DNA of 24,000 nucleotides from Chamaesiphon sp. VAR_48_metabat_135_sub (GTDB taxonomy: Bacteria; Cyanobacteriota; Cyanobacteriia; Cyanobacteriales; Chamaesiphonaceae), in contig NZ_JANOJV010000175.1 of assembly GCF_031418915.1 (NCBI RefSeq), positions 1-24,000 on the forward strand. The letters are read 5' to 3'. The notes under the pieces were generated by a model that searched no databases, was not told where the DNA came from, and saw only the letters and a list, made by a program, of their open reading frames with translations. Shown here piece after piece: positions 383-17,654 of the stretch (positions within the stretch are counted from its first letter, which is position 1; each line of letters begins with the position of its first letter). Position numbers and translations under genes: made by a program.

Positions 383-991
383 TCATTCGTTTGATATAAC
401 GTTAAGGATCATTTCAACAACTCGATAGACATGGGAACCTGGAGTTTGCGGCCAGTTTTGATTAGCATTTGGATGTAGCTCTTTTGCCCGTCGAATAGCA
501 TCCTGAATATGTTCAAGAAAAGGAGATACATCAAGATTACTGCCATTATAACTCCCTAAAATAGATCGCAGCCTTGTTTTGAAATCCTTGCTGCTGGTAT
601 CATCGGGATCTAAATCTCCAAGATGTAAACACAACCAAGCTTCAAAACAGGGATTGCTGATCGCTAAATGATATTTTTTCTGTTTGGCTTGGCGACAGAC
701 TGAGCTTAGATTCTTTGCGCCCCAGCGATCTACATCTAATACTAACCATAATGTATCCTCTTCATTTAGATCATACTTTTCAGCAAATTCATCAAGCCTT
801 TTTATTACATATTGTGGTGCAGAGTCATTTTCTACTCCCGTCGTAATGACGGCAATTTTAATGCGGGAATCATTGAATATTTCAAAATAGCTCTCCTCCG
901 TTTTAGCACCTTCAGTAGCAATTACAAATAATCGTGCATCTCGAATGTTATATCGGCGATCGAGCAACTTCGTTCTACGAGCTTTTTGCAT
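383..991 (-). CDS. RloB-like (Toprim-like) protein, partner of the upstream ABC-type ATPase
   Basis: Family hallmarks are present: FVIATEGAKTEESYF (CEGxxTE-type acidic motif), LVLDVDRW (DxD) and AISNPCFEAWLCLHL (SNPCFExWLLLH). ATG at 991 is preferred. The ORF-track start at 1003 is a TTG that overlaps the ATPase stop. Either start implies translational coupling. Confidence 0.75.
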   Translation of the reverse strand: MQKARRTKLLDRRYNIRDARLFVIATEGAKTEESYFEIFNDSRIKIAVITTGVENDSAPQYVIKRLDEFAEKYDLNEEDTLWLVLDVDRWGAKNLSSVCRQAKQKKYHLAISNPCFEAWLCLHLGDLDPDDTSSKDFKTRLRSILGSYNGSNLDVSPFLEHIQDAIRRAKELHPNANQNWPQTPGSHVYRVVEMILNVISNE

Positions 992-999
992 TACTGTTA

Positions 1000-2409
1000 T
1001 CAAGCCTTGACTTTAATAGCAGGAGACTCTGTTTCGCAATTAAGCCAGCCTAAAGTACTAATATCGCCAAAAAATGGAATTGCACCAAACCGCCCATCTA
1101 AATAGCCTTTTCCAACTTTTAAATCGGGTCTAATCTTAAATTCTGCCAATGAATATAGGTGAGATCCCCCTTGCTTGTTTTTTTCTACAAGCCAAATTTC
1201 ATCTCGACGTAAAAGTTTTAAATCAAGTAAATTTGTGTCGTGAGTCGTGAAAATTAGTTGGTTTTTACTTTCTTCAGTTTTACATTGCAAGAAAAATTCT
1301 AGAAACTGACGTGACAACAAAGGATGTAATCGACAATCTAATTCATCCAACAATACAACCTTCTCTGATTTATTTTTGAGGATAAATAAAGCAGGAATCA
1401 AATTAATCAAACGCTGTGTACCTTCTGATTCCTCTTCTATAGAGAATTCTACAAGCTGATCTTTGTCATTTAGATGCTTAGTTTTAAGTTGCATTAAACT
1501 TAGTTGACCTCCATCTCGTTTCATAAGGAGATATCTCTTTCCAGGCATATTTTCAAGCATGATTATAGAATCTTCATTGCTCTCAGCAAGTTGCTGATTA
1601 AGTTCTTCCCTCATGTTTACAGGCATTTCTGGAAAATGAGCATCAAAATCAAGTGCAACTTCCTCGACGCTAATGGAATCAATGCCAGTACCAGAAAATT
1701 TCAAAAACTTACCAAGAAAGCTAGTAAATTCTTCACTACTTAGTATTCCAATCTCTAGACCTATGGAGCGAGGATCTGAAGGAATTATCGTTAGAACTCT
1801 CTTGAACCAATGAACAATAGGCATCAGAATTGTAACATTTCGATCTACAGCTTCTGTCAAGAAAAGTTGATTCGATCTTGTCCCTTTTGCAATAAATTCT
1901 AGAAACTGCTTCTCTTTGTCACCTTTACCTCTAAGTATCGATCCATACTCTATTTTTGTTTCTTTGCTTTCAGAAGTAGTTCTGTCAAAATATTGCACTT
2001 CTCTTTTTTTGTTAGGCGGGACTCCGTAAAGCCATTCTTCAAGTATCTGACCAGAATTGAATGTAAAGCCATAAGAATATAACGCATTTCCATAAGTAAA
2101 TATGAACTCAAATTTACTAGGCTTTTTACTGTAGTCTCCTAGTTTGAATGTAGGGACTAGAATAGCTTTCCCACTGCGCGTTCCTTCGACAATTAAATCT
2201 TGTGCAAAATCAATGGCTTTAATCAGATTAGATTTGCCTGCTGCATTTGCACCATAAATAGCTGCAACAGGCAGCAATGATTTACCTTTGCCAGCTACAT
2301 CGACAGCAAGATGCGCTAGATGGCTTACATCACTATTCGCACCTAACATGCTGAAGGTGGTTTCATCCCTGAAGGATAGAAAGTTTTCGATTGTAACTTG
2401 AACCAGCAT
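1000..2409 (-). CDS. AAA_21/AAA_15-type ABC (SMC-like) ATPase, AbiLi/RloA/AriA-like
   Basis: N-terminal IENFLSFRDETTFSM followed by Walker A GANAAGKSN. Near the C-terminus there is Walker B VVLLDELDCRLHP and an H-loop FTTHDTNLL. It sits immediately upstream of the RloB-like gene. Confidence 0.8.
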   Translation of the reverse strand: MLVQVTIENFLSFRDETTFSMLGANSDVSHLAHLAVDVAGKGKSLLPVAAIYGANAAGKSNLIKAIDFAQDLIVEGTRSGKAILVPTFKLGDYSKKPSKFEFIFTYGNALYSYGFTFNSGQILEEWLYGVPPNKKREVQYFDRTTSESKETKIEYGSILRGKGDKEKQFLEFIAKGTRSNQLFLTEAVDRNVTILMPIVHWFKRVLTIIPSDPRSIGLEIGILSSEEFTSFLGKFLKFSGTGIDSISVEEVALDFDAHFPEMPVNMREELNQQLAESNEDSIIMLENMPGKRYLLMKRDGGQLSLMQLKTKHLNDKDQLVEFSIEEESEGTQRLINLIPALFILKNKSEKVVLLDELDCRLHPLLSRQFLEFFLQCKTEESKNQLIFTTHDTNLLDLKLLRRDEIWLVEKNKQGGSHLYSLAEFKIRPDLKVGKGYLDGRFGAIPFFGDISTLGWLNCETESPAIKVKA

Positions 2410-2516: not shown

Positions 2517-2702
2517 ATGCCACCAATAACAATTTGCCGTATTGATTATGGCGAAGATCGATGGATGGGGATTGGATTTCTCGGTCTTGGTGTAGCGGTA
2601 GTTGTCTGGACAGAGCGACAAGGGGATATAATCCGAATAATTTCAGCACGAAGAGCAAACCGTCATGAACAAAAACGACTCGAACAATACCTCAGGTACT
2701 AA
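2517..2702 (+). CDS. brnT: BrnT-family (DUF497) toxin, N-terminally short and possibly degenerate
   Basis: C-terminal signature WTERQGDIIRIISARRANRHEQKRLEQY (xRIISARxAxxxExxxY). It is only 61 aa, against roughly 80-100 aa as I recall for the family. An in-frame TAA at 2496-2498 blocks any N-terminal extension. Confidence 0.6.
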   Translation: MPPITICRIDYGEDRWMGIGFLGLGVAVVVWTERQGDIIRIISARRANRHEQKRLEQYLRY

Positions 2703-3068: not shown

Positions 3069-4259
3069 TCAAACAAATTTATGAACGAATTCATAGGTGA
3101 AATCAATTCGTCCTTTACGCAGTAAAGCTGGGTCCATGCGATCGGTTGTATTGCAGGTCATTAATACTACCAATTTCTGTTGAATATGAATCCCCGCTTC
3201 ATCAATTACGCTCTGATAAAGTGTCCCATCTAGCAGACTCAAAATATGTTCGGTTTTACTATTATCTTGGGCGGATTCAAGGGCACGATTTTTGGCGAGG
3301 TTATCAGCTTCATTAATAATCAGACAAATCCGCTCTAAATAACTCGGTGGTACGAAGTTTTCGACAGCATCGTGATCGAGGATAAAGATCACATAACCCA
3401 AGGGCATTAGTACTTCTTTGGCGATCGCTTGCGTCCAGACAGTTTTACCTGTGCCAGGCGCACCGTTGACGAGTACAGCCACTCGATCGTCGTCAATAAT
3501 TGCTTGTTGAACTAGATCGCTAAAGATTTGAATATCGGCTGAGAACGATCGAATGGGATAGTCGCTATTGATTTTACCTACCCGACTTTTATAGCCGCTT
3601 AAAATCACGGCTACATCATAAGTAGCTTTATTAATTAATGGGGCTAAATCCTTGGCACAAATTGTATATTGACGTTTGCCTTTTTCGTATGTCTCCACCT
3701 GTACCCAGATATCATATTCTTTCCAGTAAGCCGAAACATAGCCCAGGACTTCCAGCCGATCCCAACTAGTGAATCGATCGCAAGGATAGTAGAAATACCG
3801 CTCCCAATAGTACTGAGTAATCAGATCGGGTTTGCCCAAAATCTCCAGAATATTCTTGACAGTGATTTCTTCCAATCGATTGAGCACATACTCGATCGGA
3901 ATACTATCGCGACTGACTAATTGAACGATCGGAGTTTGAGCGACGAGGACATCTTTATGTCGGCGATCGGGTGCGGCCGGATCTGGCGTAATATAGTTCC
4001 AGAGTTCGTTAAATTCATACTGCACGCTATCTGAAAATACATTCAGAATATTTGCCCACCATGAATATTGTTTGCGGCTGAGAGCATCGGCGACATCGCT
4101 AAAAAAATCAGCACTCCGTTTCGCTAAATTCCAGGTATCATTAACAACTATATTCGCGAAAAAACCAACATCCAAATCCCGATTTAGCGGTCGCCATCCC
4201 GCTGCTAATAGCCCTTTATTTTGAGCGTTATTATTCTGGTTGAAATCTCCATATCCCAT
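3069..4259 (-). CDS. Classical-clade AAA+ ATPase with an unrecognised ~250-aa N-terminal domain and no C-terminal lid
   Basis: Walker A VNGAPGTGKT. Walker B-like ICLIINEADNL (Asn where Asp is usual). Second region of homology VVLMTCNTTDRMDPALLRKGRID. The protein ends 13 residues after GRID. ATG at 4259. Confidence 0.8.
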   Translation of the reverse strand: MGYGDFNQNNNAQNKGLLAAGWRPLNRDLDVGFFANIVVNDTWNLAKRSADFFSDVADALSRKQYSWWANILNVFSDSVQYEFNELWNYITPDPAAPDRRHKDVLVAQTPIVQLVSRDSIPIEYVLNRLEEITVKNILEILGKPDLITQYYWERYFYYPCDRFTSWDRLEVLGYVSAYWKEYDIWVQVETYEKGKRQYTICAKDLAPLINKATYDVAVILSGYKSRVGKINSDYPIRSFSADIQIFSDLVQQAIIDDDRVAVLVNGAPGTGKTVWTQAIAKEVLMPLGYVIFILDHDAVENFVPPSYLERICLIINEADNLAKNRALESAQDNSKTEHILSLLDGTLYQSVIDEAGIHIQQKLVVLMTCNTTDRMDPALLRKGRIDFTYEFVHKFV

Positions 4260-4311
4260 ATTAATTTTCTGTCTTTAAAATTTGCTTCAAGAGCTTAATG
4301 CTCTAGGCGAA

Positions 4312-4875
4312 TCACGCTGCTAATAGTTGTAGATATTGTGGTGGTACCTCATCAACCAACCACACATCATTTTCGGTGCAGTAGAAGTCATAACCATTGC
4401 TTTCCATTAACAGCGCATTTACACCCAATACAATGCTCTTCCCACGTCTACCACCTACTTGATGAGCCATACTCAAATTTGTGGTGAGATGAACGTGGTG
4501 ACGAGACATTTTTTGCAATCCTGTCTTTAAAATTTCTGTTACTACTTTGACATGAGTCCCATGATAGAGAATGGCAGGAGGAGTGCGAACTGGAAGTTGT
4601 AAATCTACTTCAGTAGAATGTCCCTGATTGGCGCGAATTAAATCGCCGGAATCATCGAAAGAAAAACGTTGTTTCTCATTGGTGGCTACGACTTGTTTGA
4701 GATCGGCTAAACTAATTTCAAATCCATTTTTGGCTGTGGCGGCTAGCAGATCGGCTACATTTACCCATCCACCTGGTGCGAGTTCCAAGCCGATACGTTC
4801 TGGTTGGTGGCGCAAGTGTTTGGATAGGTATTTACTGATTCTAACGTGGCGTTGGGGAATTTGCTGTTTGCTCAT
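4312..4875 (-). CDS. kptA: RNA 2'-phosphotransferase, Tpt1/KptA family (NAD+-dependent)
   Basis: ISKYLSKHLRHQPERIGLELAPGGWVNVADLL, IRANQGHS, LYHGT and MSRHHVHL match the Tpt1/KptA pattern, including the Arg-His-Arg-Arg catalytic tetrad positions. The length of 187 aa is typical. Confidence 0.85.
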   Translation of the reverse strand: MSKQQIPQRHVRISKYLSKHLRHQPERIGLELAPGGWVNVADLLAATAKNGFEISLADLKQVVATNEKQRFSFDDSGDLIRANQGHSTEVDLQLPVRTPPAILYHGTHVKVVTEILKTGLQKMSRHHVHLTTNLSMAHQVGGRRGKSIVLGVNALLMESNGYDFYCTENDVWLVDEVPPQYLQLLAA

Positions 4876-4914: not shown

Positions 4915-4964
4915 GGCATAATCATCAGCCTCCCCCCTGCCCTTTACCTAGAACAGCAGAATGC

Positions 4965-4996
4965 CCCCACCAAAACGGTACTCCGTTTGGTGGTGG
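4965..4996 (+). repeat. Left-end subterminal hairpin of the IS, followed by a second hairpin at 4999-5017
   Basis: CCCCACCAAAACGG-TACT-CCGTTTGGTGGTGG gives about 13 bp with two bulges. Next is TGGTCGGG-TCA-CCCGACCA, an 8-bp stem at 4999-5017. Confidence 0.6.
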
Positions 4997-5173
4997 ATTG
5001 GTCGGGTCACCCGACCAGTAGATGAATGCGAGTGAGGTGACGATTGCCTGCCCGACAATCCCGACAATCAGCAGATCTCGGAAGGAGGGCAGGCATGAGG
5101 AGACGAACAAATTCATTGCTTATTCAATATTTTATCTGGGTTTTTCTAGATAAAATTATGTTATCATAGTTTC

Positions 5174-6466
5174 ATGATAGTTAGAGAAGCCAAGCTAAAA
5201 CACGGTACACCAGAGCAATATTCTGCCATTGATGAAGCCATCCAAACAGCACAGTTCATTCGGAACAAAGCCGTTCGCTATTGGATGAACAATCAAGGCA
5301 CGAGTAAAGCCGATTTGTACAGCATATGCAAAGACCTGGCTAAAGAGTTTGACTTTGCTAAGAAGCTTAACTCCGCCGCTCGTCAAGCTAGTGCTGAACG
5401 TGCTTGGGCTGCTATCTCTAGCTTCTATGCCCGATGCAAAAAGGGTGTAGGAAAGAAAGCGGATGCTTTCCGGTCGGGTTCCCCGACCATGGAAAAGCAC
5501 CAAGCAGGTTTTCCCAAGTTTAAAAAACATTGTCGCTCTGTTGAATATAAGGTTTCAGGATGGAAACTATCAGATGATTGCAAATCGATCGCATTCACCG
5601 ATGGTTTTGAGATTGGAACATTGTCGATATTTTGCAACAATGAAACTCAAGAAGACTTGCAAAGGTTAAAAATTAATCGTGTGCGGATTGTGCGGAGAGC
5701 AGATGGGTATTATGCCCAATTCTGTTTTGATGCAGATCGTAAAGAGCAGGGGGAGTATTCGGGTAATGTTGTCGGATTGGATCTAGGGTTGAAGTTTTTC
5801 ACCAAAGACCAAAATGATAACGCCGTCATCTACCCTCAATTCTTGCGAAAGTCCGAACGCAAATTAAAAAAAGCTGCCAGAAGATTAAGTAAGAAGTTTG
5901 TCAAAGGTGCTAAACCTCAATCAAACAACTACCACAGGGCACGGAAACGACTAGGAAGAGTTCATCTCAAAATTCAACGCCAGCGAAAAGATTGGGCAAT
6001 CAAGCAAGCCCGAAACGTAGTGATATCTAACGATGTCGTGGTGTATGAAAATTTGCAGATTGCGAACATGGTCAAAAATCATCATTTGGCTAAGTCAATT
6101 TCTGATGCTGGTTGGTATCAATACACTCAATGGCTAGACTACTACGGCAAGATTTGGGATAAAGCAGTTGTGGCAGTATCGCCTAACTACACGTCCCAAG
6201 ATTGCTCTAATTGCGGTCATCGGGTCAAAAAATCCCTCAGTACTAGAACACATTCATGTCCTAACTGCAAGATTGAGATTTGTCGCGACACAAATGCGGC
6301 TCTGAACATTCTGCATAAAGGATTGAACATTCTTGGTGTTGAGTGGAACAAACAGCGTGGCGGGTCACCCGCCCAGCACAGTACGTCAGGGCATGACGAA
6401 TCTGGCTCGGAAGCGGAGTTCGTCCGGTCGGGGAACCCGACCATGGAACGAACCCAAGCAGAGTGA
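5174..6466 (+). CDS. tnpB: RNA-guided endonuclease TnpB (IS200/IS605 OrfB) with two in-frame palindromic insertions and a truncated C-terminal tail
   Basis: RuvC triad contexts VVGLDLGL, VVVYENL and CRDTNAALNIL are present. The zinc ribbon CSNCGH...CPNCK is present. The N-terminal pattern AKLKHGTPEQYSAIDEAIQTAQFIRNKAVRYWM and the FPKFKKH motif are present. Confidence 0.9.
   Translation: MIVREAKLKHGTPEQYSAIDEAIQTAQFIRNKAVRYWMNNQGTSKADLYSICKDLAKEFDFAKKLNSAARQASAERAWAAISSFYARCKKGVGKKADAFRSGSPTMEKHQAGFPKFKKHCRSVEYKVSGWKLSDDCKSIAFTDGFEIGTLSIFCNNETQEDLQRLKINRVRIVRRADGYYAQFCFDADRKEQGEYSGNVVGLDLGLKFFTKDQNDNAVIYPQFLRKSERKLKKAARRLSKKFVKGAKPQSNNYHRARKRLGRVHLKIQRQRKDWAIKQARNVVISNDVVVYENLQIANMVKNHHLAKSISDAGWYQYTQWLDYYGKIWDKAVVAVSPNYTSQDCSNCGHRVKKSLSTRTHSCPNCKIEICRDTNAALNILHKGLNILGVEWNKQRGGSPAQHSTSGHDESGSEAEFVRSGNPTMERTQAE
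5459..5509 (+). repeat. Palindromic repeat element, copy A, in frame inside tnpB (encodes ADAFRSGSPTMEKHQAG)
   Basis: GCGGA...GCTTTCC-GGTCGGG-TTC-CCCGACC-AT-GGAAAAGC...CCAAGCAG. The hairpin spans 5465-5498. It sits immediately before the conserved FPKFKK motif. Confidence 0.7.
6413..6466 (+). repeat. Palindromic repeat element, copy B, in frame at the tnpB 3' end (encodes AEFVRSGNPTMERTQAE-stop)
   Basis: GCGGA...GTTCGTCC-GGTCGGG-GAA-CCCGACC-AT-GGAACGAAC..CCAAGCAG. The hairpin spans 6418-6453. It supplies the TGA stop at 6464-6466. Confidence 0.7.
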
Positions 6467-7150: not shown

Positions 7151-10100
7151 TTACCAATCTCGCTGTGTCAAACCCCTAGCATGTTGATAGCAGTTTTCAG
7201 CTTCTTGCCACTGTTCGAGACTGCTGTAAACCCTACCCTTATTGAACCATAACTCTGGATTCTCCGGATCTAGTCCAGTGGCTTGCTCAAAGCTGAATAG
7301 GGCATTGTCGAGTCGATGGAGTTCGAGCAGACAATTTCCGCGACTATTCCAGGCGGCTGCTCGATCTGGGTCGAGGTTGAGGACGATTTCATAGTCAGCT
7401 AACGCCGCTTCAAATTCACGTCTCATCAGATGAATATTGCCCCGTCGAGACCAAGCGAGAATATATTCTGGGTCTAATCCTATCGATCGATCGAGACTAA
7501 CGATCGCGGCTTCTACTTGTCCTAGAGCTTGCTGGGCAATCGACTGTTTGTACCAAGTTGGGGCATCATCATCCCTAAGTTGAAGACTGGTCTGATAGCA
7601 CTGGAGAGCCTCAGGATACTGTTGGAGGTTGAGGTGGATTAAACCCTGGTTATTCCAGCCTGTGGGGTCTTGAGGGGCAACCTTGGTGGCTTGGCGATAA
7701 CTGTGGAGGGCACTTTCTAAGTTGCCGAGTTGAAAGAGGGCATTGCCGCGACCATTCCAGGCGTGATGCTCGGAGGAAGAAGCTCCAGTTACGAGCGTGC
7801 GCGATAAGGTCAGGGATCGATCGAAGCTAGCAACAGCGGCTTCCCATTGTTTGAGTTCGAGCAGAGCATTGCCTCGGTGATAATAGGCGTGGCTATCGTC
7901 GGGGTTGATAATCGCACAGTTGTCGTAACAGGCGATCGCATCTTCGTATTTTTGGAGATGAAATAAGGCGATGCCCCGATCGATCCACACGAGGGGATCT
8001 TGGGGATTGACACTGACACTTTGCTCGTAACATGCTAGTGCTTCCTGCCAACAGCCCAGTTGTTTGAGAGAGATCGCTCTACCATTCCAGGCATTGGCAT
8101 CGTGAGGATGGATTTCCAAGCTCTGCTCGTGGGAATGGGCGGCTTCTTCATAACGGTGGAGGTGGAATAGAGCCTTACCCCGATTGTGCCAGCTTTGGTA
8201 GAACAGGGGTTGTAATTTTAAAGCTTTGTCATAACTATCGATCGCCTCCTCATAGCGTTTGAGCGATCCGAGGACGTTACCATGATTGTTCCAGATATAA
8301 TAATCTTCTGGCTCGATCTGTAGTGCGCGTTCGTAGCTATCGAGGGCGCGTTCTCTGTGTCCTAATTGGAATAGCAGATTTCCCTGTTGATACCAAGCTG
8401 GAGCGTAGTCTGGATCTAGTTCCAAACAGCGTTTGTAGCTGTCAAGATTCTCGGTTGTGTCGGTCTGGATCTGAAACTGGACTTGTCCGCGTTGGTACCA
8501 AGCCAGGGCAAAATTGGGATCGGACTCAATTGCTTTGTTGTAACTAGCTAGAGCATCTTCCCAGCGTTCCAAGTGACTGAGTAAATGACCGCGATGGTAA
8601 TATGTATCGGATCGATCGGGTTCTAGCTCCAGTGCTTGACGATAGGCATTTAGAGCCGCGACAAATTCGCCTTGATGGTATTGAGCCTGTCCCAATAGGT
8701 GCCAACTTCTCGCCCGCTCTGGCTGAATTTCGGTGGCTGTTTGAAGGCTATCTACAGCGGTATTGTAATCGCGTAGCTCGATCGAGATGCGTCCATGTTG
8801 TTCCCAAACGTTGGCATTGTTGGGATCGAGTTCGATGGCTTGACAGCAGGATATCAGTGCAGTTTCCCATTCGCCTTGAGCGGCTTGAACTTGGCTTTGG
8901 TTGAAGAAGATCGATGAGTGATTTTGAGGATCGAGACTCAGAGCGCGCTCATAGCAAGCATCAGCACCTTCCCAGCGGTCAAGTCCGGCTAGGGCTAAAC
9001 CTTTGGCATACCAGGCTGCTGGTGCATTTTCATCCAATTCAAGGGCTTTGTCATAGCAGGCGAGAGCTTCTTCCCAGCGTTGTAACTGGGATAGAACGTG
9101 CCCGTGGCTATAGCAGAGATCGTAACTGGGAGAGGTTAAGATGGTGACTCGTTCGTAACAAATTGCCGCACGTTCCCATTCCTGCAATTGTTGGAGAGCC
9201 TTGCCTTGACGATACCAGGCTTCGACACGATCGGGTTGGAGACTCGTTACCTGTTGGTAAGCATAGACAGATTCGGCTAATTCGGCTAATTGCCAGAGTA
9301 AATTGCCCAATCCATACCAGGTATCGGGATCTTGGGGGTGAAATTCGATCGCCCGCTCGTAGGCTCCTCGCGCAGCTTCGGTATCGCCGATTTGGGTTAA
9401 TTCTTTGCCCAAATTATGCCAAGCGGGATGATAGTTGGGTTGAATTTCGATCGCTTTGCGGTAGCTGTCGATCGCTTGGTCTGGTTGACCCAAATGTGCT
9501 AAGGTGAGGCCGCGATCGTTCCAACTGTGGCAATCTTGAGGATTGAGTTCGAGGGCGCGGTCGTAAACATCCAGTGCTGCGGAATAGCGTTGGAGTTTGA
9601 GCAGAGTTTTGCCTTGAAGGTACCAAACAGTCGCCGCATTCTTGTTAATTTTCACAGCTTGCTGATAGCTGTAGAGCGCATCTTCCCATTGTTCTAGGTG
9701 GGAGTAAGCATAGCCGCGTTGATACCAACAATCGAAGCTATTGGGCGCGATCGCTAGGGCTGCATCGTAGCTAGCAATTGCCTCAGGATAGCGGTTAAGC
9801 TTGAATAGTGACTGTCCTTTGCCCTGAATGGCGGGGGCGAAGTTTGGCTCCATGGAGATCGCTCGCTCGTAATTGAGCAGGGCGTATTCATATCTACCTA
9901 ATTCCGAGAGCGCGTTACCGCGTTCGTACCAGGCTTCGTGAAAATTGGAGTTAATCGCGATCGCTCGATCGTAACTTTCTAATGCCGAGCTATACTCTTT
10001 TTGCAATCCTTGGACGATGCCATAACTATGCCAGATTGCCGGATCTTTAGACCTCAGTTTTAGCGTTTGCTCTAGACTGGAAATTGCTTCACAATACTGT

Positions 10101-12142
10101 CCAAGTTCGGCAAAAGTTTTACCGCGCTCGTACCACGGTTCATAGTTTTCGGGGTGGAGGGCGATCGATCGATTGTAGCAGTCTAGAGCTTCCTGCTGTT
10201 GACCTAACGCTGCACAAGCCTGACCCCGACTGTGCCAGGTGTAGGCTTCTTCTGGCTGATAACTCAGAGCTTTATCGTAACTGACGATCGCCTCAGCATA
10301 GTTACCCTGATGCGCCAATGTCATCCCCTGATTGTACCAAGCGGGATAAAATTCGGGATTGAGTTTGAGGGTATGATTGTAGCTACTAATTGCCTCGTCG
10401 TATCTACCTAAATGAAACAGCACGAAGCCTAGATTATTCCAGGCTTGGTGGTAATCTGGCTTGAGCTTGAGAGTTTGGTCGTAACAACCCAAAGCTTGCT
10501 CGTACTTACTCAGGTGAAATAATGCCATCCCTTTGTTGTACCAAGCTTGATGAAATTGGGGGTTGAGCTTAATCGTGCGATCGTAACTGACGATTGCGGC
10601 ATCATAGCGGTGGAGATGAAATTGGGCTACACCCAAGTTATTCCAAGCCGTATAAAAATCTGGGTGCAGCCTAGTCGCTTGTTCATATGCATTAATTGCC
10701 GACTCAAACTTACCGAGTTTGAATAGGGTTTTGCCCTGATTATTCCAAGCATCACTATGATTGGAGTCGAGTTGGGTGGCTTTCCGATAGCAGTCGAGTG
10801 CGTGTTCGTACCGTCCCAGTTGGAACATTGCCTTACCGCGATTATTCCAAGTTTCGGCATCTTTGGGCAAAAGTGTGGTAGCCTGGGTGTAGCAATTAAG
10901 AGCTTCTTGAGGTCGATCGAGCTGCGACAGGATATTACCGCGATTCGTCCAACCTTCAGCTAATTGGGGCTGTAACTTGGTCACGACTTCATATTTGCGG
11001 AGTGCGGTTTCCAATTCGCCCAGATGGAACAGAATATTGCCACAGTGATTCCAGGCTTGATAAAAGTCTGGTTGCAGTTGGGTAACTCTAGTATAAGCTT
11101 TGAGAGCTGCCTCAAAATCACCTAGGAAAAATAATACTTTGCCCTGATTGTACCAAGCTGCTTGAAAATCGGGGGCGATATCGATCGCGCAGCGGTAACA
11201 TCTTAGTGCATCTTGAAAACTTTTTTGCTCGAAGTGGGCAACGCCCAAGTTATTCCAAGCTTGAGAGAATTGCGAATCGAGTTCTGTTGCCTTCTGATAG
11301 GCATGAATTGCTGGTGTGAGCTTATTTAATTGAAATAATACCTGACCTTGATTATTCCAAGCAAATCGATCGCTCGGATCGATCTGCAAACTCTGTTCGT
11401 AACAACTAGCGGCTGCTTGCAGGTGTCCGATCTGAAACAATAACCAGCCCTTATTTGACAGGGTTAGACTATCATCTGGCTTGAGTTCTAGTGCCCGATC
11501 GTAAGCCGATAGTGCTGCATCATACTGTTGTAGCTCGAATAGAGCGCGTCCCTTTTGATAAAGCGCGAACCGCTCATCAGGATGGATCTCGATCGCTCGA
11601 TCGCAGCTCCTAATTGTTTCTTGGTAACGCCCGAGTTGAAATAGCACCCAGCCTCGATTTGCCCAAGCTTCAGCATCTTCAGGCTGGAGATCGATCGCTC
11701 GATCGTAAGCAGTGAAGGCTTCCTCCCATCTTCTCAGCCCAACCAAAACCCAACCTAAACTTGCCCACACTTCTTGCCTGTGGGGTTGTAGCTCGATTGT
11801 CTTATTATAGCAAGCTAAGGCAACATCCAGTTTCCCTGCATTACGATACAAGTTTCCCTGACTGTACCAAGCTTCTGGGTCATCTGTGGCCACGGGAGGA
11901 GTTAGGTATTCGGACTCAGTTAGAAAATCTTGTTTCATTATCTCATGTTCGGCGATTGCTGTCGCAGATGAATCTCCATTTGGGAGAGATCCATTTAGCC
12001 GATCGGCTAAATATTGGGTCGCAGAGACAGATTCACCCGACGATCGACCACGATTTATTGGTGGAATTGCTCCAACAGAAACTCGTTCTTCGATTTGGGC
12101 TGCTTTTTTCTTGTTACTACTGCTCCAAAATTTACTCAGCAT
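7151..12142 (-). CDS. Giant tetratricopeptide-repeat protein (about 1660 aa, roughly 46 consecutive 34-aa TPR units)
   Basis: An uninterrupted 34-residue periodicity with the TPR consensus (W..xG.xL..LGRYEEAL..Y.KAL.L.P....AW.N) runs from about residue 100 to the C-terminus. The N-terminal ~100 aa are Ser/Gly-rich and non-repetitive. ATG at 12142 is preferred over the TTG at 12154 given in the ORF track. Confidence 0.9.
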   Translation of the reverse strand: MLSKFWSSSNKKKAAQIEERVSVGAIPPINRGRSSGESVSATQYLADRLNGSLPNGDSSATAIAEHEIMKQDFLTESEYLTPPVATDDPEAWYSQGNLYRNAGKLDVALACYNKTIELQPHRQEVWASLGWVLVGLRRWEEAFTAYDRAIDLQPEDAEAWANRGWVLFQLGRYQETIRSCDRAIEIHPDERFALYQKGRALFELQQYDAALSAYDRALELKPDDSLTLSNKGWLLFQIGHLQAAASCYEQSLQIDPSDRFAWNNQGQVLFQLNKLTPAIHAYQKATELDSQFSQAWNNLGVAHFEQKSFQDALRCYRCAIDIAPDFQAAWYNQGKVLFFLGDFEAALKAYTRVTQLQPDFYQAWNHCGNILFHLGELETALRKYEVVTKLQPQLAEGWTNRGNILSQLDRPQEALNCYTQATTLLPKDAETWNNRGKAMFQLGRYEHALDCYRKATQLDSNHSDAWNNQGKTLFKLGKFESAINAYEQATRLHPDFYTAWNNLGVAQFHLHRYDAAIVSYDRTIKLNPQFHQAWYNKGMALFHLSKYEQALGCYDQTLKLKPDYHQAWNNLGFVLFHLGRYDEAISSYNHTLKLNPEFYPAWYNQGMTLAHQGNYAEAIVSYDKALSYQPEEAYTWHSRGQACAALGQQQEALDCYNRSIALHPENYEPWYERGKTFAELGQYCEAISSLEQTLKLRSKDPAIWHSYGIVQGLQKEYSSALESYDRAIAINSNFHEAWYERGNALSELGRYEYALLNYERAISMEPNFAPAIQGKGQSLFKLNRYPEAIASYDAALAIAPNSFDCWYQRGYAYSHLEQWEDALYSYQQAVKINKNAATVWYLQGKTLLKLQRYSAALDVYDRALELNPQDCHSWNDRGLTLAHLGQPDQAIDSYRKAIEIQPNYHPAWHNLGKELTQIGDTEAARGAYERAIEFHPQDPDTWYGLGNLLWQLAELAESVYAYQQVTSLQPDRVEAWYRQGKALQQLQEWERAAICYERVTILTSPSYDLCYSHGHVLSQLQRWEEALACYDKALELDENAPAAWYAKGLALAGLDRWEGADACYERALSLDPQNHSSIFFNQSQVQAAQGEWETALISCCQAIELDPNNANVWEQHGRISIELRDYNTAVDSLQTATEIQPERARSWHLLGQAQYHQGEFVAALNAYRQALELEPDRSDTYYHRGHLLSHLERWEDALASYNKAIESDPNFALAWYQRGQVQFQIQTDTTENLDSYKRCLELDPDYAPAWYQQGNLLFQLGHRERALDSYERALQIEPEDYYIWNNHGNVLGSLKRYEEAIDSYDKALKLQPLFYQSWHNRGKALFHLHRYEEAAHSHEQSLEIHPHDANAWNGRAISLKQLGCWQEALACYEQSVSVNPQDPLVWIDRGIALFHLQKYEDAIACYDNCAIINPDDSHAYYHRGNALLELKQWEAAVASFDRSLTLSRTLVTGASSSEHHAWNGRGNALFQLGNLESALHSYRQATKVAPQDPTGWNNQGLIHLNLQQYPEALQCYQTSLQLRDDDAPTWYKQSIAQQALGQVEAAIVSLDRSIGLDPEYILAWSRRGNIHLMRREFEAALADYEIVLNLDPDRAAAWNSRGNCLLELHRLDNALFSFEQATGLDPENPELWFNKGRVYSSLEQWQEAENCYQHARGLTQRDW

Positions 12143-12591
12143 AATTGGTTTCAAAGATGTTCAAAAGACTTCAAAGGTAAAAAATCTCGCGCAGTTTATG
12201 TATCGAAAGTGTAACGTTGACGAAATATTGACTTGGGTGCTGAAGATCGTCTGAATTATTGACGAAAGTAAGTAAAAATCGATGGATGTAGCTAGAGAGT
12301 TACAAGCCATACGCTGGAATGAGTTGAGTGCATTTAGAGTCTAACTGGTCTCAATTCAATTTTTTGTTACTTTGGCAACTTATTTCAATGTATAAAAAAG
12401 GTATCTCCACCAGACATAATCTATGGACTAGTGCCGAATTTCACCAAACTTAAATTAAAGTGAATTATATGGCACAAACACACTAAATTGTCATAATCTC
12501 CTACAAACGATCCAAAAAGACTAGTCTCAGGATTATTCAAGAGGGGTTAGAAATGAGTCTCGATTGTTGCGGGTACAACGATCTCCATCAA

Positions 12592-15944: not shown

Positions 15945-17654
15945 TTAGAACAGGAAATAACGCTGCGCCATTGGTAAAACAGTCGCAGGTTCACAGGTAA
16001 GTAACTCCCCATCCGCTCTCACTTCATAAGTTTCAGGATTAACTTCCATCCGTGGCAATGCGTCATTCAACTTCATATCCCGCTTACTCACATTCCGAGT
16101 CCCCGATACAACTAAAGCCTGTTTTTTCAATTGTAATTGGTCTGGTAAATACCGCTCCATTGCAATCTGGGAAATAAAGGTAAACGCAGTATTAGTTCTC
16201 GCACTACCATAACTCCCAAACATCGGTCGTATATGTACTGGTTGAGGTGTGGGAATACTAGCATTGGCATCGCCCATTTGTGCCCAGGCAATCATTCCAC
16301 CCTTAATTACGGTTTCTGGTTTGACTCCAAAAAAGGCAGGTTTCCATAATACTAAATCAGCAATTTTACCAGACTCGATCGATCCCACATAGTTACTAAT
16401 CCCGTGGGTAATCGCCGGATTGATTGTGTATTTAGAAATATAGCGTTTTGCTCGCAAATTATCCGCAGGTTGACGATCGTTTGGTAAACCACCCCGTTGG
16501 ACTTTCATTTTATGGGCAGTTTGCCAAGTCCGAATAATTGATTCGCCAATTCTCCCCATCGCTTGAGAGTCGGAAGAAATCATACTAAATGCGCCCAAAT
16601 CGTGGAGAATATCTTCAGCCGCGATCGTTTCTCTGCGAATTCTGGACTCGGCAAAAGCGACATCTTCAGGGATACTCGGACTCAAATGGTGACACACCAT
16701 TAACATATCCAAATGTTCGTCGAGGGTATTTAAAGTATACGGACGAGTCGGATTAGTAGAAGAGGGTAATACATTTGCTTCCCCACAGACTTTGATAATA
16801 TCTGGCGCATGTCCACCGCCTGCACCTTCGGTATGGTAAGTGTGAATTGTCCGCCCTTTAAACGCCGCAATTGTTGTCTCCACAAACCCCGCTTCATTGA
16901 GCGTATCCGAGTGAATCGCTACCTGAACATCATACTCATCCGCCACATTCAAACAATTATCGATCGCGGCGGGAGTAGTTCCCCAATCTTCATGCAATTT
17001 TAACCCGATTGCGCCTGCTTCTATCTGTTCGACCAAACCTTGAGGCTGACTGCTATTTCCCTTCCCCAATAAACCGATATTCATCGGAAAGGCATCCGCC
17101 GCCTGTAGCATCCTGTACATATTCCACACCCCAGGCGTACACGTCGTTGCACTCGTTCCGGCTGCTGGTCCAGTACCACCACCAATCATCGTTGTAATCC
17201 CCGACGCGATCGCTACATCAATCTGTTGCGGGCAGATAAAATGAATGTGGGTATCAATCCCCCCCGCTGTCAAAATCGACCCCTCCCCAGCGATAATTTC
17301 GGTACCTGGGCCGATAATAATATCAACATTATCTTGAATATAGGGATTCCCTGCCTTGCCTACTTTGTAAATTTTCCCATCCTTAATCCCCACATCTGCC
17401 TTAATAATTCCCCACCAATCCAGAATCACCGCATTGGTAATTACCAAATCCACCGCACCATCGGCGTTAGAAATCGGCGACTGTCCCATCCCATCCCGAA
17501 TTACCTTTCCGCCACCAAATTTTACCTCATCCCCATAGGTCGTCAAATCTCGCTCGATTTCGATGAATAACTCTGTATCCGCAAGCCGGACTCGATCGCC
17601 TGTAGTGGGACCGTATGTCTGAGCGTAAGCACGGCGATCCATTCTATAACTCAT
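15945..17654 (-). CDS. ureC: Urease subunit alpha
   Basis: [63 protein letters not shown] and MVCHHL: all nickel-centre motifs are present. 569 aa. Confidence 0.95.

Follow-up and report, generated by a model that had tools for sequence, protein, structure and literature searches.

What a KptA enzyme does in a bacterium, and whether it acts alone, is the question raised by a stretch of 24,000 nucleotides (nt) from the cyanobacterium Chamaesiphon sp. VAR_48_metabat_135_sub (contig NZ_JANOJV010000175.1, positions 1 to 24,000; this whole stretch is called the window below), in which kptA lies directly upstream of a gene for an AAA ATPase of 396 amino acids (aa). The biochemistry of Tpt1/KptA goes back decades, and its cellular role beyond fungal and plant tRNA splicing is still debated. 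We find that kptA and the AAA gene are a conserved two-gene cassette that cyanobacteria inherit vertically. The pair is real and is undescribed in the literature that we searched, which links KptA/Tpt1 neither to an AAA partner nor to cyanobacteria and, in the KptA papers examined, makes no mention of a partner ATPase; an earlier mention in the RNA-repair survey of Burroughs and Aravind (2016) is possible. How the pair works we infer from its composition, conservation and surroundings.

The candidate KptA substrates in current papers include tRNA Up47 and 5'-phosphate ends, and no bacterial pathway partners are named (PMC9095486, PMC12678800). A first-pass annotation of this DNA, made from the letters and their open reading frames (ORFs), treated the bacterial role of KptA as an open question, bacteria lacking the splicing pathway that makes its substrate. 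That view needs updating, as the 2'-phosphate of tRNA Up47 is erased by KptA, the E. coli enzyme included, both in vitro and in E. coli (PMC9095486). The two genes and their parts are the following.

4312-4875, minus strand: kptA, RNA 2'-phosphotransferase of the Tpt1/KptA family, 187 aa, with PF01885 and NF002014 matches
4807-4812, 4633-4635 and 4501-4503, minus strand: catalytic tetrad Arg-His-Arg-Arg of KptA (R22-H23, R81 and R125, respectively; coordinates verified)
4260-4311, minus strand: kptA-AAA spacer, 52 nt (length verified)
3069-4259, minus strand: AAA protein, 396 aa, downstream of kptA and co-oriented with it
3510-4259, minus strand: N-domain (residues 1-250) of the AAA protein, with the conserved N-terminal motif GLLxxGWRPLxR at 4179-4214 (a candidate interface), helices as far as residue 90 or so and, at about residues 100-230, a β-rich part
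3069-3509, minus strand: AAA α/β module without C-terminal helical lid, residues 251-396 and stop codon, PF00004
3441-3464, minus strand: Walker A GAPGTGKT, residues 266-273 (coordinates verified)
3300-3320, minus strand: Walker B IINEADN (coordinates verified)
3144-3158, minus strand: sensor-1 TCNTT (coordinates verified)
3102-3134, minus strand: Arg-finger motif DPALLRKGRID (coordinates verified)
3069-3101, minus strand: C-terminus FTYEFVHKFV and stop (coordinates verified)

A conserved kptA-AAA gene pair

The linkage of the two genes was surveyed by tblastn with the window KptA against the 80 best species loci of the AAA family, a neighbourhood survey of the kind that the first-pass annotation had recommended for its suspected operon. 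In 64 of the 80 loci the AAA gene is immediately preceded by a kptA match on the same strand, and kptA is intact in 60 of them; with 60 of 80 loci adjacent and the two proteins diverging in step (r = 0.83, below), the suspected unit is real. Linked genera include Chamaesiphon, Microcoleus, Phormidium, Tychonema, Kamptonema, Okeania, Spirulina, Coleofasciculus, Halomicronema, Aphanothece and others; Chamaesiphon minutus PCC 6605 is one strain with the pair (P0059). When neighbouring ORFs were clustered, the AAA gene was recovered from 79 loci and kptA from 63, and the next cluster (23 loci) is a generic PAS histidine-kinase family. No neighbour besides kptA is comparably conserved, and the other flanking genes turn over between loci; in L001, the AAA protein is 97% identical to that of the window, yet the flanking genes are different.

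The remaining four upstream matches are decayed, with C-terminal remnants of kptA in L027 and L072 and frameshifted or interrupted copies in L038 and L050. The latter two loci belong to Hormoscilla, where kptA is damaged at 5053-5588 of L038 and at 4197-4723 of L050, is absent from L049, and the AAA gene is intact, a pattern suggestive of gene decay in a lineage of symbionts. In one locus of the 80 (L058), kptA lies 4.3 kb downstream of the AAA gene. The pair was also seen in a metagenome-assembled genome labelled Actinomycetota (L032, JBLNEP010000091.1), where it is accompanied by Microcoleus-type PAS histidine kinases; this is probably a mis-binned cyanobacterial contig.

In the reverse test we examined 80 metagenome contigs with kptA relatives. 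Among kptA copies at least 58% identical to that of the window and followed by about 1 kb or more of sequence, six have the AAA gene (L087, L090, L093, L096, L097 and L100), and no copy below about 56% identity has it. The linkage is a property of a conserved chromosomal clade and is absolute in neither direction. On one cyanobacterial-looking contig (L095, 3989-5823), a 122-aa ORF separates kptA from a different classical AAA protein downstream, of 298 aa and with a lid; small ORFs on either side share an 'LPDDVRE' motif, and this kptA-AAA association is independent of the main pair.

The first-pass annotation placed kptA 52 nt upstream of the AAA gene and in the same orientation, and the spacer is indeed exactly 52 nt, with both genes on the minus strand. 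Across 49 loci the spacer has a median of 82 nt (range 44-202 nt, mostly 55-200 nt). We found no promoter-like or terminator-like site on the coding (minus) strand of the window spacer, and kptA and the AAA gene are probably co-transcribed as one transcript. Neither upstream of kptA nor in the spacer did we find an NtcA-like site, a LexA-like site or another shared motif, and no Rfam family or tRNA gene was found close to the pair.

Pairwise protein distances of KptA and the AAA protein are correlated (r = 0.83, 1830 pairs), and among Chamaesiphon genomes the synonymous divergence (dS) is similar for the AAA gene and kptA (1.0 versus 0.8). Both genes are under purifying selection in these genomes, the ratio of nonsynonymous to synonymous rates (ω) being 0.049 in the AAA gene and 0.172 in kptA, and within the AAA gene the N-domain (0.049) and the ATPase module (0.045) are equally constrained. 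Because dS is similar and protein distances are correlated, kptA and the AAA gene share a history; both are functional, and the ATPase is the more constrained. The very strong constraint on the ATPase, N-domain included, suggests that what it works with is conserved and cellular, and not a phage trigger that evolves fast.

One caveat had been raised against the unit, namely that kptA has 0 CGATCG sites and the AAA gene 8, so that the two might have different histories and their adjacency might be fortuitous. The counts are right and the caveat falls away. The same asymmetry (0-2 versus 5-9 sites) recurs in other Chamaesiphon loci where the adjacency is conserved, and at the overall rate of the window a 564-nt gene with 0 sites is no surprise (P ≈ 0.11). 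Given the similar dS and the correlated distances, we rejected different histories for the two genes.

KptA and a lidless AAA ATPase

PF01885 matches KptA at 170.3 bits (cutoff 26), with residues 9-175 covering profile positions 2-176 of 177, and the NCBIfam equivalog NF002014 scores 252.4 bits against a curated cutoff of 239. The Arg-His-Arg-Arg tetrad, defined elsewhere as the catalytic set of KptA/Tpt1 (PMC12678800), is complete. Its residues R22-H23, R81 and R125 are supplied by the LRH, IRANQGHS and SRHHVHL contexts, all three of which the first-pass annotation had correctly picked out, and the tetrad is kept in at least 97% of the linked orthologues (n = 61). The window KptA is predicted to be a catalytically intact NAD+-dependent phosphotransferase and, judged by its profile score, an equivalog-level orthologue of ordinary KptA. 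By full-length domain, equivalog score and tetrad it is a member of the family of E. coli KptA, yeast Tpt1 and archaeal KptA. Those characterised enzymes were studied as stand-alone proteins, whereas kptA of the window type is kept beside a specific ATPase gene in one bacterial phylum.

The AAA protein had been described as an unannotated N-domain of about 250 aa joined to a classical AAA module, and this description holds: PF00004 matches residues 262-391 only (48.5 bits), and for residues 1-250 no family was found in Pfam, NCBIfam or PADLOC. The secondary structure given above for the N-domain was read from an AlphaFold2 model. Within the module, K272 of Walker A is invariant throughout the family, while in Walker B E317 is near-invariant and N316 replaces the usual Asp in nearly all members (N316-E317-x-D319). 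N370 of sensor-1, R381 and R384 are invariant or nearly so family-wide, and R374, D376 and G383 are also conserved. The Arg-finger motif aligns with 'DPALRRFGRFD' of Cdc48, and the family profile, searched against the PDB, matches the α/β core only (positions 263-389) of Cdc48/p97, FtsH and the proteasomal Rpt subunits. Because the trans-acting arginines are conserved, the protein would be an oligomeric, catalytically active ATPase, and it probably forms rings. Identity with a STAND NTPase was considered and rejected, PF25199 (nSTAND_NTPase5) reaching 22 bits against a cutoff of 34 and over the P-loop region only.

A helical lid is normally present in AAA proteins. Here the stop falls 10 residues past GRID, and the lid subdomain is missing. 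All of the 56 aligned family members have the same end point or short unconserved tails only; members at 24-43% identity keep the motifs and end in the same F-x-H-x-[FY]-V or in a short unconserved tail. Because relatives so distant stop at the same point, the alignment marks the missing lid as a family trait and excludes truncation. The maximum 19-residue Kyte-Doolittle hydropathy is 1.41, with the peak inside the AAA core, and no transmembrane segment is present. By these features the protein is predicted to be soluble and to belong to a distinct 'lidless' branch of the classical AAA proteins. It is acidic, with an isoelectric point (pI) of 5.0, versus 8.7 for the basic KptA.

The first-pass annotation called this ATPase an orphan, which it is not. 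Among some 5.8 billion proteins searched we found more than 100 homologues of full length (395-426 aa, 66-98% identity), those with names coming from Chamaesiphon, Halomicronema, Aphanothece and Microcoleus, and family-specific peptide patterns detect relatives in 416 species genomes, almost all cyanobacterial (one genome per species). By sequence the family is compact and phylum-restricted, since the N-domain is found in only 38 clusters of 1.84 billion representatives and every full-length match is about 400 aa long with the same architecture. No fusion protein with the N-domain was found, its matches being proteins of about 400 aa or fragments. No AAA family match was found among PLSDB plasmids and no member in IMG/VR, and the cultured phages of INPHARED gave matches to the AAA module only, with the N-domain absent.

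Some divergent lidless AAA members, 26-37% identical, have settings of their own. One lies inside a phage-like nucleotide-metabolism block with ribonucleotide reductase, dUTPase, dNMP kinase, ThyX and a RuvC-like resolvase (L082, 1-13191), two are in long arrays of small co-oriented ORFs (L169 and L170), two are in a TerD/vWA-TerF/TerC cluster (L171 and L172) and one adjoins an nSTAND1 NTPase (L167).

An AlphaFold model of the whole AAA protein, built from a 42-sequence alignment, has a pLDDT of 68, with values of about 75-88 over residues 130-300. The top 10 Foldseek matches of this model in the PDB are all Bcs1 (E 1e-10 to 3e-7, TM 0.28-0.37), the best of them at E 1e-10 over 336-412 aligned columns with TM 0.34-0.37, and the first matches in BFVD are BCS1-like ATPases of jumbo phages and giant viruses (TM up to 0.44). 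A fold search on residues 1-250, of the kind suggested in the first-pass annotation, gave no significant match; in the N-domain-only model (pLDDT 55) Bcs1 ranks fourth, at E 0.05 and probability 0.23. Pfam BCS1_N has no match in the AAA protein at E ≤ 0.01, and we do not claim the N-domain as a Bcs1_N domain. The modelled protein appears Bcs1-like in overall fold and not to be a member of the Bcs1 family. With Bcs1 and the viral BCS1-like proteins it shares the layout of a family-specific N-terminal domain followed by a classical AAA module and, presumably, with Bcs1 the motif DPALxRxGRxD. It differs in having neither the transmembrane anchor of mitochondrial Bcs1 nor a C-terminal helical lid, in the N-E of its family's Walker B and in a distribution limited to cyanobacteria and some phage-like contigs. 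Bcs1-type ATPases handle folded proteins (PMC7824862), and by this likeness the ATPase may have a role in remodelling folded proteins.

Neighbours of the pair in other genomes and in the window

Several recurrent neighbours have RNA or nucleotide chemistry. In seven of the 80 loci a NUDIX gene (PF00293) stands between kptA and the AAA gene (L033, L047, L051, L057, L060, L063 and L066; at 1511-1945 in L033), and three metagenome contigs have one after kptA (L092, L096 and L100); the insertion suggests that ADP-ribose derivatives arising from KptA activity are processed. An ATP-dependent RNA ligase of the DRB0094/Rnl5 family (TIGR02306, 154.5 bits, cutoff 151) is nearby in 4-5 loci, an S-adenosylmethionine (SAM) methyltransferase gene lies directly upstream of kptA in 13, and an RNase T-type exonuclease occurs in Hormoscilla loci. 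The NUDIX, Rnl5-type ligase and methyltransferase neighbours point to RNA 2'-phosphate or ADP-ribose end processing. Comparative genomics has placed KptA in RNA repair with Nudix, 2H and Macro domains and RNA ligases (PMC9503650, PMC7824862), and pairings of KptA with Nudix are among the RNA-repair modules proposed there (PMC9503650). The cyanobacterial loci resemble such KptA-centred modules in their NUDIX gene (seven loci) and nearby Rnl5-type ligase (4-5 loci), whereas no 2H or Macro gene was seen here; conversely, an AAA ATPase is not reported with KptA in those surveys (PMC9503650, PMC7824862) and is the constant partner in the cyanobacterial pair.

A larger syntenic block surrounds the pair in several filamentous genera, in the order L7/L12-like, c12, c4, c19, c9, DUF6847, kptA-AAA, c3, ThiF-like and DUF924 (L025, L029, L030, L035, L037, L039, L041, L042, L044, L054, L060 and L066; at 349-8136 in L037). 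Of its members, c4 is about 480 aa long with a vWA-like C-terminus and a mean column identity of 86%, and c3 is about 280 aa long; profiles of c3, c4 and c9 gave no PDB, Pfam or NCBIfam match. Homologues of c9 (135 aa), at 52-56% identity, adjoin kptA in L146 (2232-2612), L147 (2679-3023) and L149 (671-1006), contigs that are probably not cyanobacterial and whose kptA is less than 50% identical to that of the window. The c9 protein may represent a second, wider KptA-associated family.

In the window itself none of these recurrent neighbours occurs; the pair stands among accessory genes, and a large tetratricopeptide repeat (TPR) gene lies beside that accessory patch.

383-2409, minus strand: AbiLi/AbiLii (RloB); AbiLi is an AAA_21 ATPase of 469 aa (PADLOC 302 bits), AbiLii/RloB has 206 aa
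2517-2940: BrnT/BrnA; BrnT at 2517-2702, plus strand, BrnA at 2665-2940, overlapping the 3' end of BrnT
5174-6466, plus strand: solo TnpB gene, RNA-guided endonuclease family (NF040570, 242 bits), divergent from kptA
7151-12154, minus strand: TPR protein, 1667 aa, almost all TPR repeats; GC about 0.49-0.51, above the adjoining accessory patch

The AbiL genes look intact, overlap stop to start at 1000-1003 and, with a GC of 0.36-0.39 and almost no CGATCG sites, are unlike the chromosome around them. The BrnT toxin ORF (61 aa) covers positions 36-77 of the 77 of its Pfam model, has in-frame stops just upstream and looks N-terminally truncated. Between the TnpB gene and kptA lies a hydrophobic 63-aa ORF (4925-5116, minus strand) that is not conserved elsewhere. 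The rest of the window is ordinary chromosome, with the 3' end of mutS, the TPR protein, urease α, SpoT/RelA and an ABC transporter. An Rfam 5_ureB_sRNA match (17213-17498, plus strand, 67.6 bits) is antisense to the urease α gene (15945-17654, minus strand) and may be a mere by-product of the conserved urease coding sequence, with no genuine antisense sRNA behind it.

The first-pass annotation described a toxin-antitoxin module, an AbiL-like module and an insertion sequence around the pair and took them as support, by association, for a role in genetic conflict. Two of these flanks were correctly described and are BrnT/BrnA and AbiLi/AbiLii; the third is a solo TnpB gene, beside which no TnpA gene was seen. 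Elsewhere, AbiL, RloB, BrnTA and TnpB adjoin the pair at 0-1 loci (80 other loci compared). Among the 140 nearest neighbours PAS histidine kinases (12), methyltransferases (11), DUF760 proteins (8) and ABC transporters (5) predominate, and only about 8 match specific defence families. The frequent PADLOC matches mad2, mad3 and AriA are read as generic-domain matches because they equal the methyltransferase and ABC-transporter neighbours in number. On the AAA protein PADLOC gave local matches only, to Walker A or the second region of homology (TRIP13, 24 bits; IetA, at most 19.5 bits), and on KptA none. The defence-island enrichment asked about in the first-pass annotation failed to appear, and the association does not carry beyond its starting point, the defence flanks being specific to the window genome.

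What the pair may do

The products of kptA and the AAA gene are quite probably functionally linked, through physical or functional coupling. As the best explanation overall we tentatively propose that the cassette combines KptA chemistry with an ATP-driven, Bcs1-like remodeller in RNA end-healing or 2'-phosphate erasure. The ATPase would spend ATP on remodelling the protein-bound RNA on which KptA acts (for example tRNA or another ribonucleoprotein) or on presenting it to the enzyme; alternatively, it would gate KptA activity. The pair would then act as cellular maintenance or stress repair and would not be a mobile abortive-infection system. The specific mechanism, a remodeller serving RNA processing, is one that we regard as plausible and hold with some reserve. 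A precedent for a partnered KptA is the ArkI-KptA writer/eraser pair of tRNA 2'-phosphouridine 47, which gives the enzyme a natural non-splicing substrate and a dedicated partner (PMC9095486). ArkI, however, is a kinase-fold writer, whereas the window partner is an ASCE-type AAA ATPase with Arg fingers, a hydrolase and not a phosphotransferase. The idea that the ATPase is itself an RNA 2'-kinase 'writer' opposite KptA was rejected, as Arg-finger AAA chemistry should be hydrolytic rather than phosphotransferring.

A number of observations weigh against this proposal. kptA is absent from 15 of the 80 AAA loci, most of which form one clade (L017-L024, L028, L062, plus L012) with ScpB and DUF760 genes before the AAA gene; loss of kptA from an ancestral arrangement is suggested for these, because the gene order in L027 is ScpB, DUF760, RNA ligase, kptA remnant, AAA gene. 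Five close kptA copies (L088, L089, L091, L095 and L099), all cyanobacterial-looking, have no AAA gene, which amounts to four or five out of 10-11 close cyanobacterial copies. Divergent AAA family members at 26-44% identity have kptA at none of 12 loci, some of them in phage-like contigs. RNA-repair neighbours occur in a minority of loci and not in the window, and conflict-flavoured ones (SUKH-1, R2K ATP-grasp, IetA-like AAA, ThiF-like and vWA-like) occur in some. The acidity of the ATPase speaks little for direct RNA binding, its whole-protein model is of moderate quality (pLDDT 68), and the N-domain has no significant fold match.

The adjacency could be inherited synteny and nothing else, with KptA working alone as in E. 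coli and the ATPase serving another cyanobacterial process. Some cyanobacteria do have one gene and not its partner, in both directions, none of the divergent AAA relatives has a linked kptA, the N-domain search turned up no fusion, and the two genes differ in evolutionary rate and in CGATCG density. Nevertheless, the two genes keep their adjacency, order and orientation in many genera, where the other flanks turn over, the spacers are short, the gene that is inserted between the pair is a NUDIX hydrolase, which fits KptA chemistry, and in L058 kptA is still within 4.3 kb after rearrangement; unrelated functions are unlikely. In another reading the ATPase is a dedicated chaperone or gatekeeper of KptA itself and not of the RNA substrate, its ring holding the basic, folded KptA and releasing it with ATP so as to limit NAD+ use or off-target ADP-ribosylation of 5'-phosphates. 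This would suit the best fold matches, to Bcs1-type handlers of folded proteins (PMC7824862), the complementary charges of the two proteins, the AAA gene's leaning on kptA more than the reverse (81% versus roughly 55-60%) and the different AAA protein after kptA in L095. We nonetheless consider such a chaperone or gatekeeper quite unlikely, as the ATPase is still highly conserved (about 72% identity) in the clade that lost adjacent kptA, and phage-like AAA relatives occur without kptA.

Also unlikely is an anti-phage or abortive-infection system, in which the AAA ATPase would sense infection and release or activate KptA, and NAD+ depletion or ADP-ribosylation of 5'-phosphate RNA or DNA ends would stop growth. 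Its appeal comes from the AbiLi/AbiLii, BrnT/BrnA and TnpB flanks of the window pair, from a site that tolerates accessory insertions (flanks differ even between close relatives, as in L001) and from other loci, with SUKH-1 directly upstream of kptA in three, an IetA-like second AAA in three and an R2K ATP-grasp; divergent AAA members, moreover, adjoin an nSTAND1 NTPase, sit in a TerD/vWA-TerF cluster or lie in phage-like contigs. Two-gene systems of an ATPase and a nucleotide-modifying enzyme, such as RADAR, are known, and the pair is like RADAR RdrA-RdrB and IetAS in joining an ATPase with an NAD+/nucleic-acid enzyme and, in the window, in its context of AbiL and BrnTA. To neither system, however, has it a relationship at the level of hidden Markov models, neither protein reaches any PADLOC defence family, and at about 8 of 140 nearest neighbours in specific defence families the cyanobacterial pair is not enriched in defence islands. 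Vertical-looking inheritance (r = 0.83), strong constraint (ω ≈ 0.05 in the putative sensor domain) and the lack of PLSDB plasmid or IMG/VR copies make the ATPase unlike a typical mobile sensor, and KptA scores as an ordinary orthologue. Dependence of the toxin-antitoxin type was rejected on intact kptA without the AAA gene (the five contigs named above) and on an intact AAA gene with decayed or absent kptA (L027, L072, L038, L050 and L017-L024); a linkage incomplete in both directions argues against it and leaves no toxin/immunity dependence. The defence reading of the kptA-AAA pair is poorly supported, and the defence-island view is corrected to one that holds for the window genome only.

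The boldest version of these ideas, and in our estimate a rather unlikely one, would have the lidless Bcs1-like ATPase and KptA form an ATP- and NAD+-dependent cyanobacterial machine, its ring capturing a folded protein-RNA complex or KptA and so controlling 2'-phosphate erasure or ADP-ribosylation of nucleic-acid ends, either in RNA-damage surveillance or as a chromosomally fixed conflict module with relatives used by cyanophages. If true, this would provide the first in-vivo pathway and partner for a bacterial KptA and define a structurally new class of AAA ATPases, lidless yet functional. The ATPase keeps its catalytic residues in the absence of the helical lid and, if active, would be an unusual minimal AAA architecture. 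For the KptA family, a partner gene that is conserved, co-inherited and constrained offers a genetic handle on the substrates of the enzyme.

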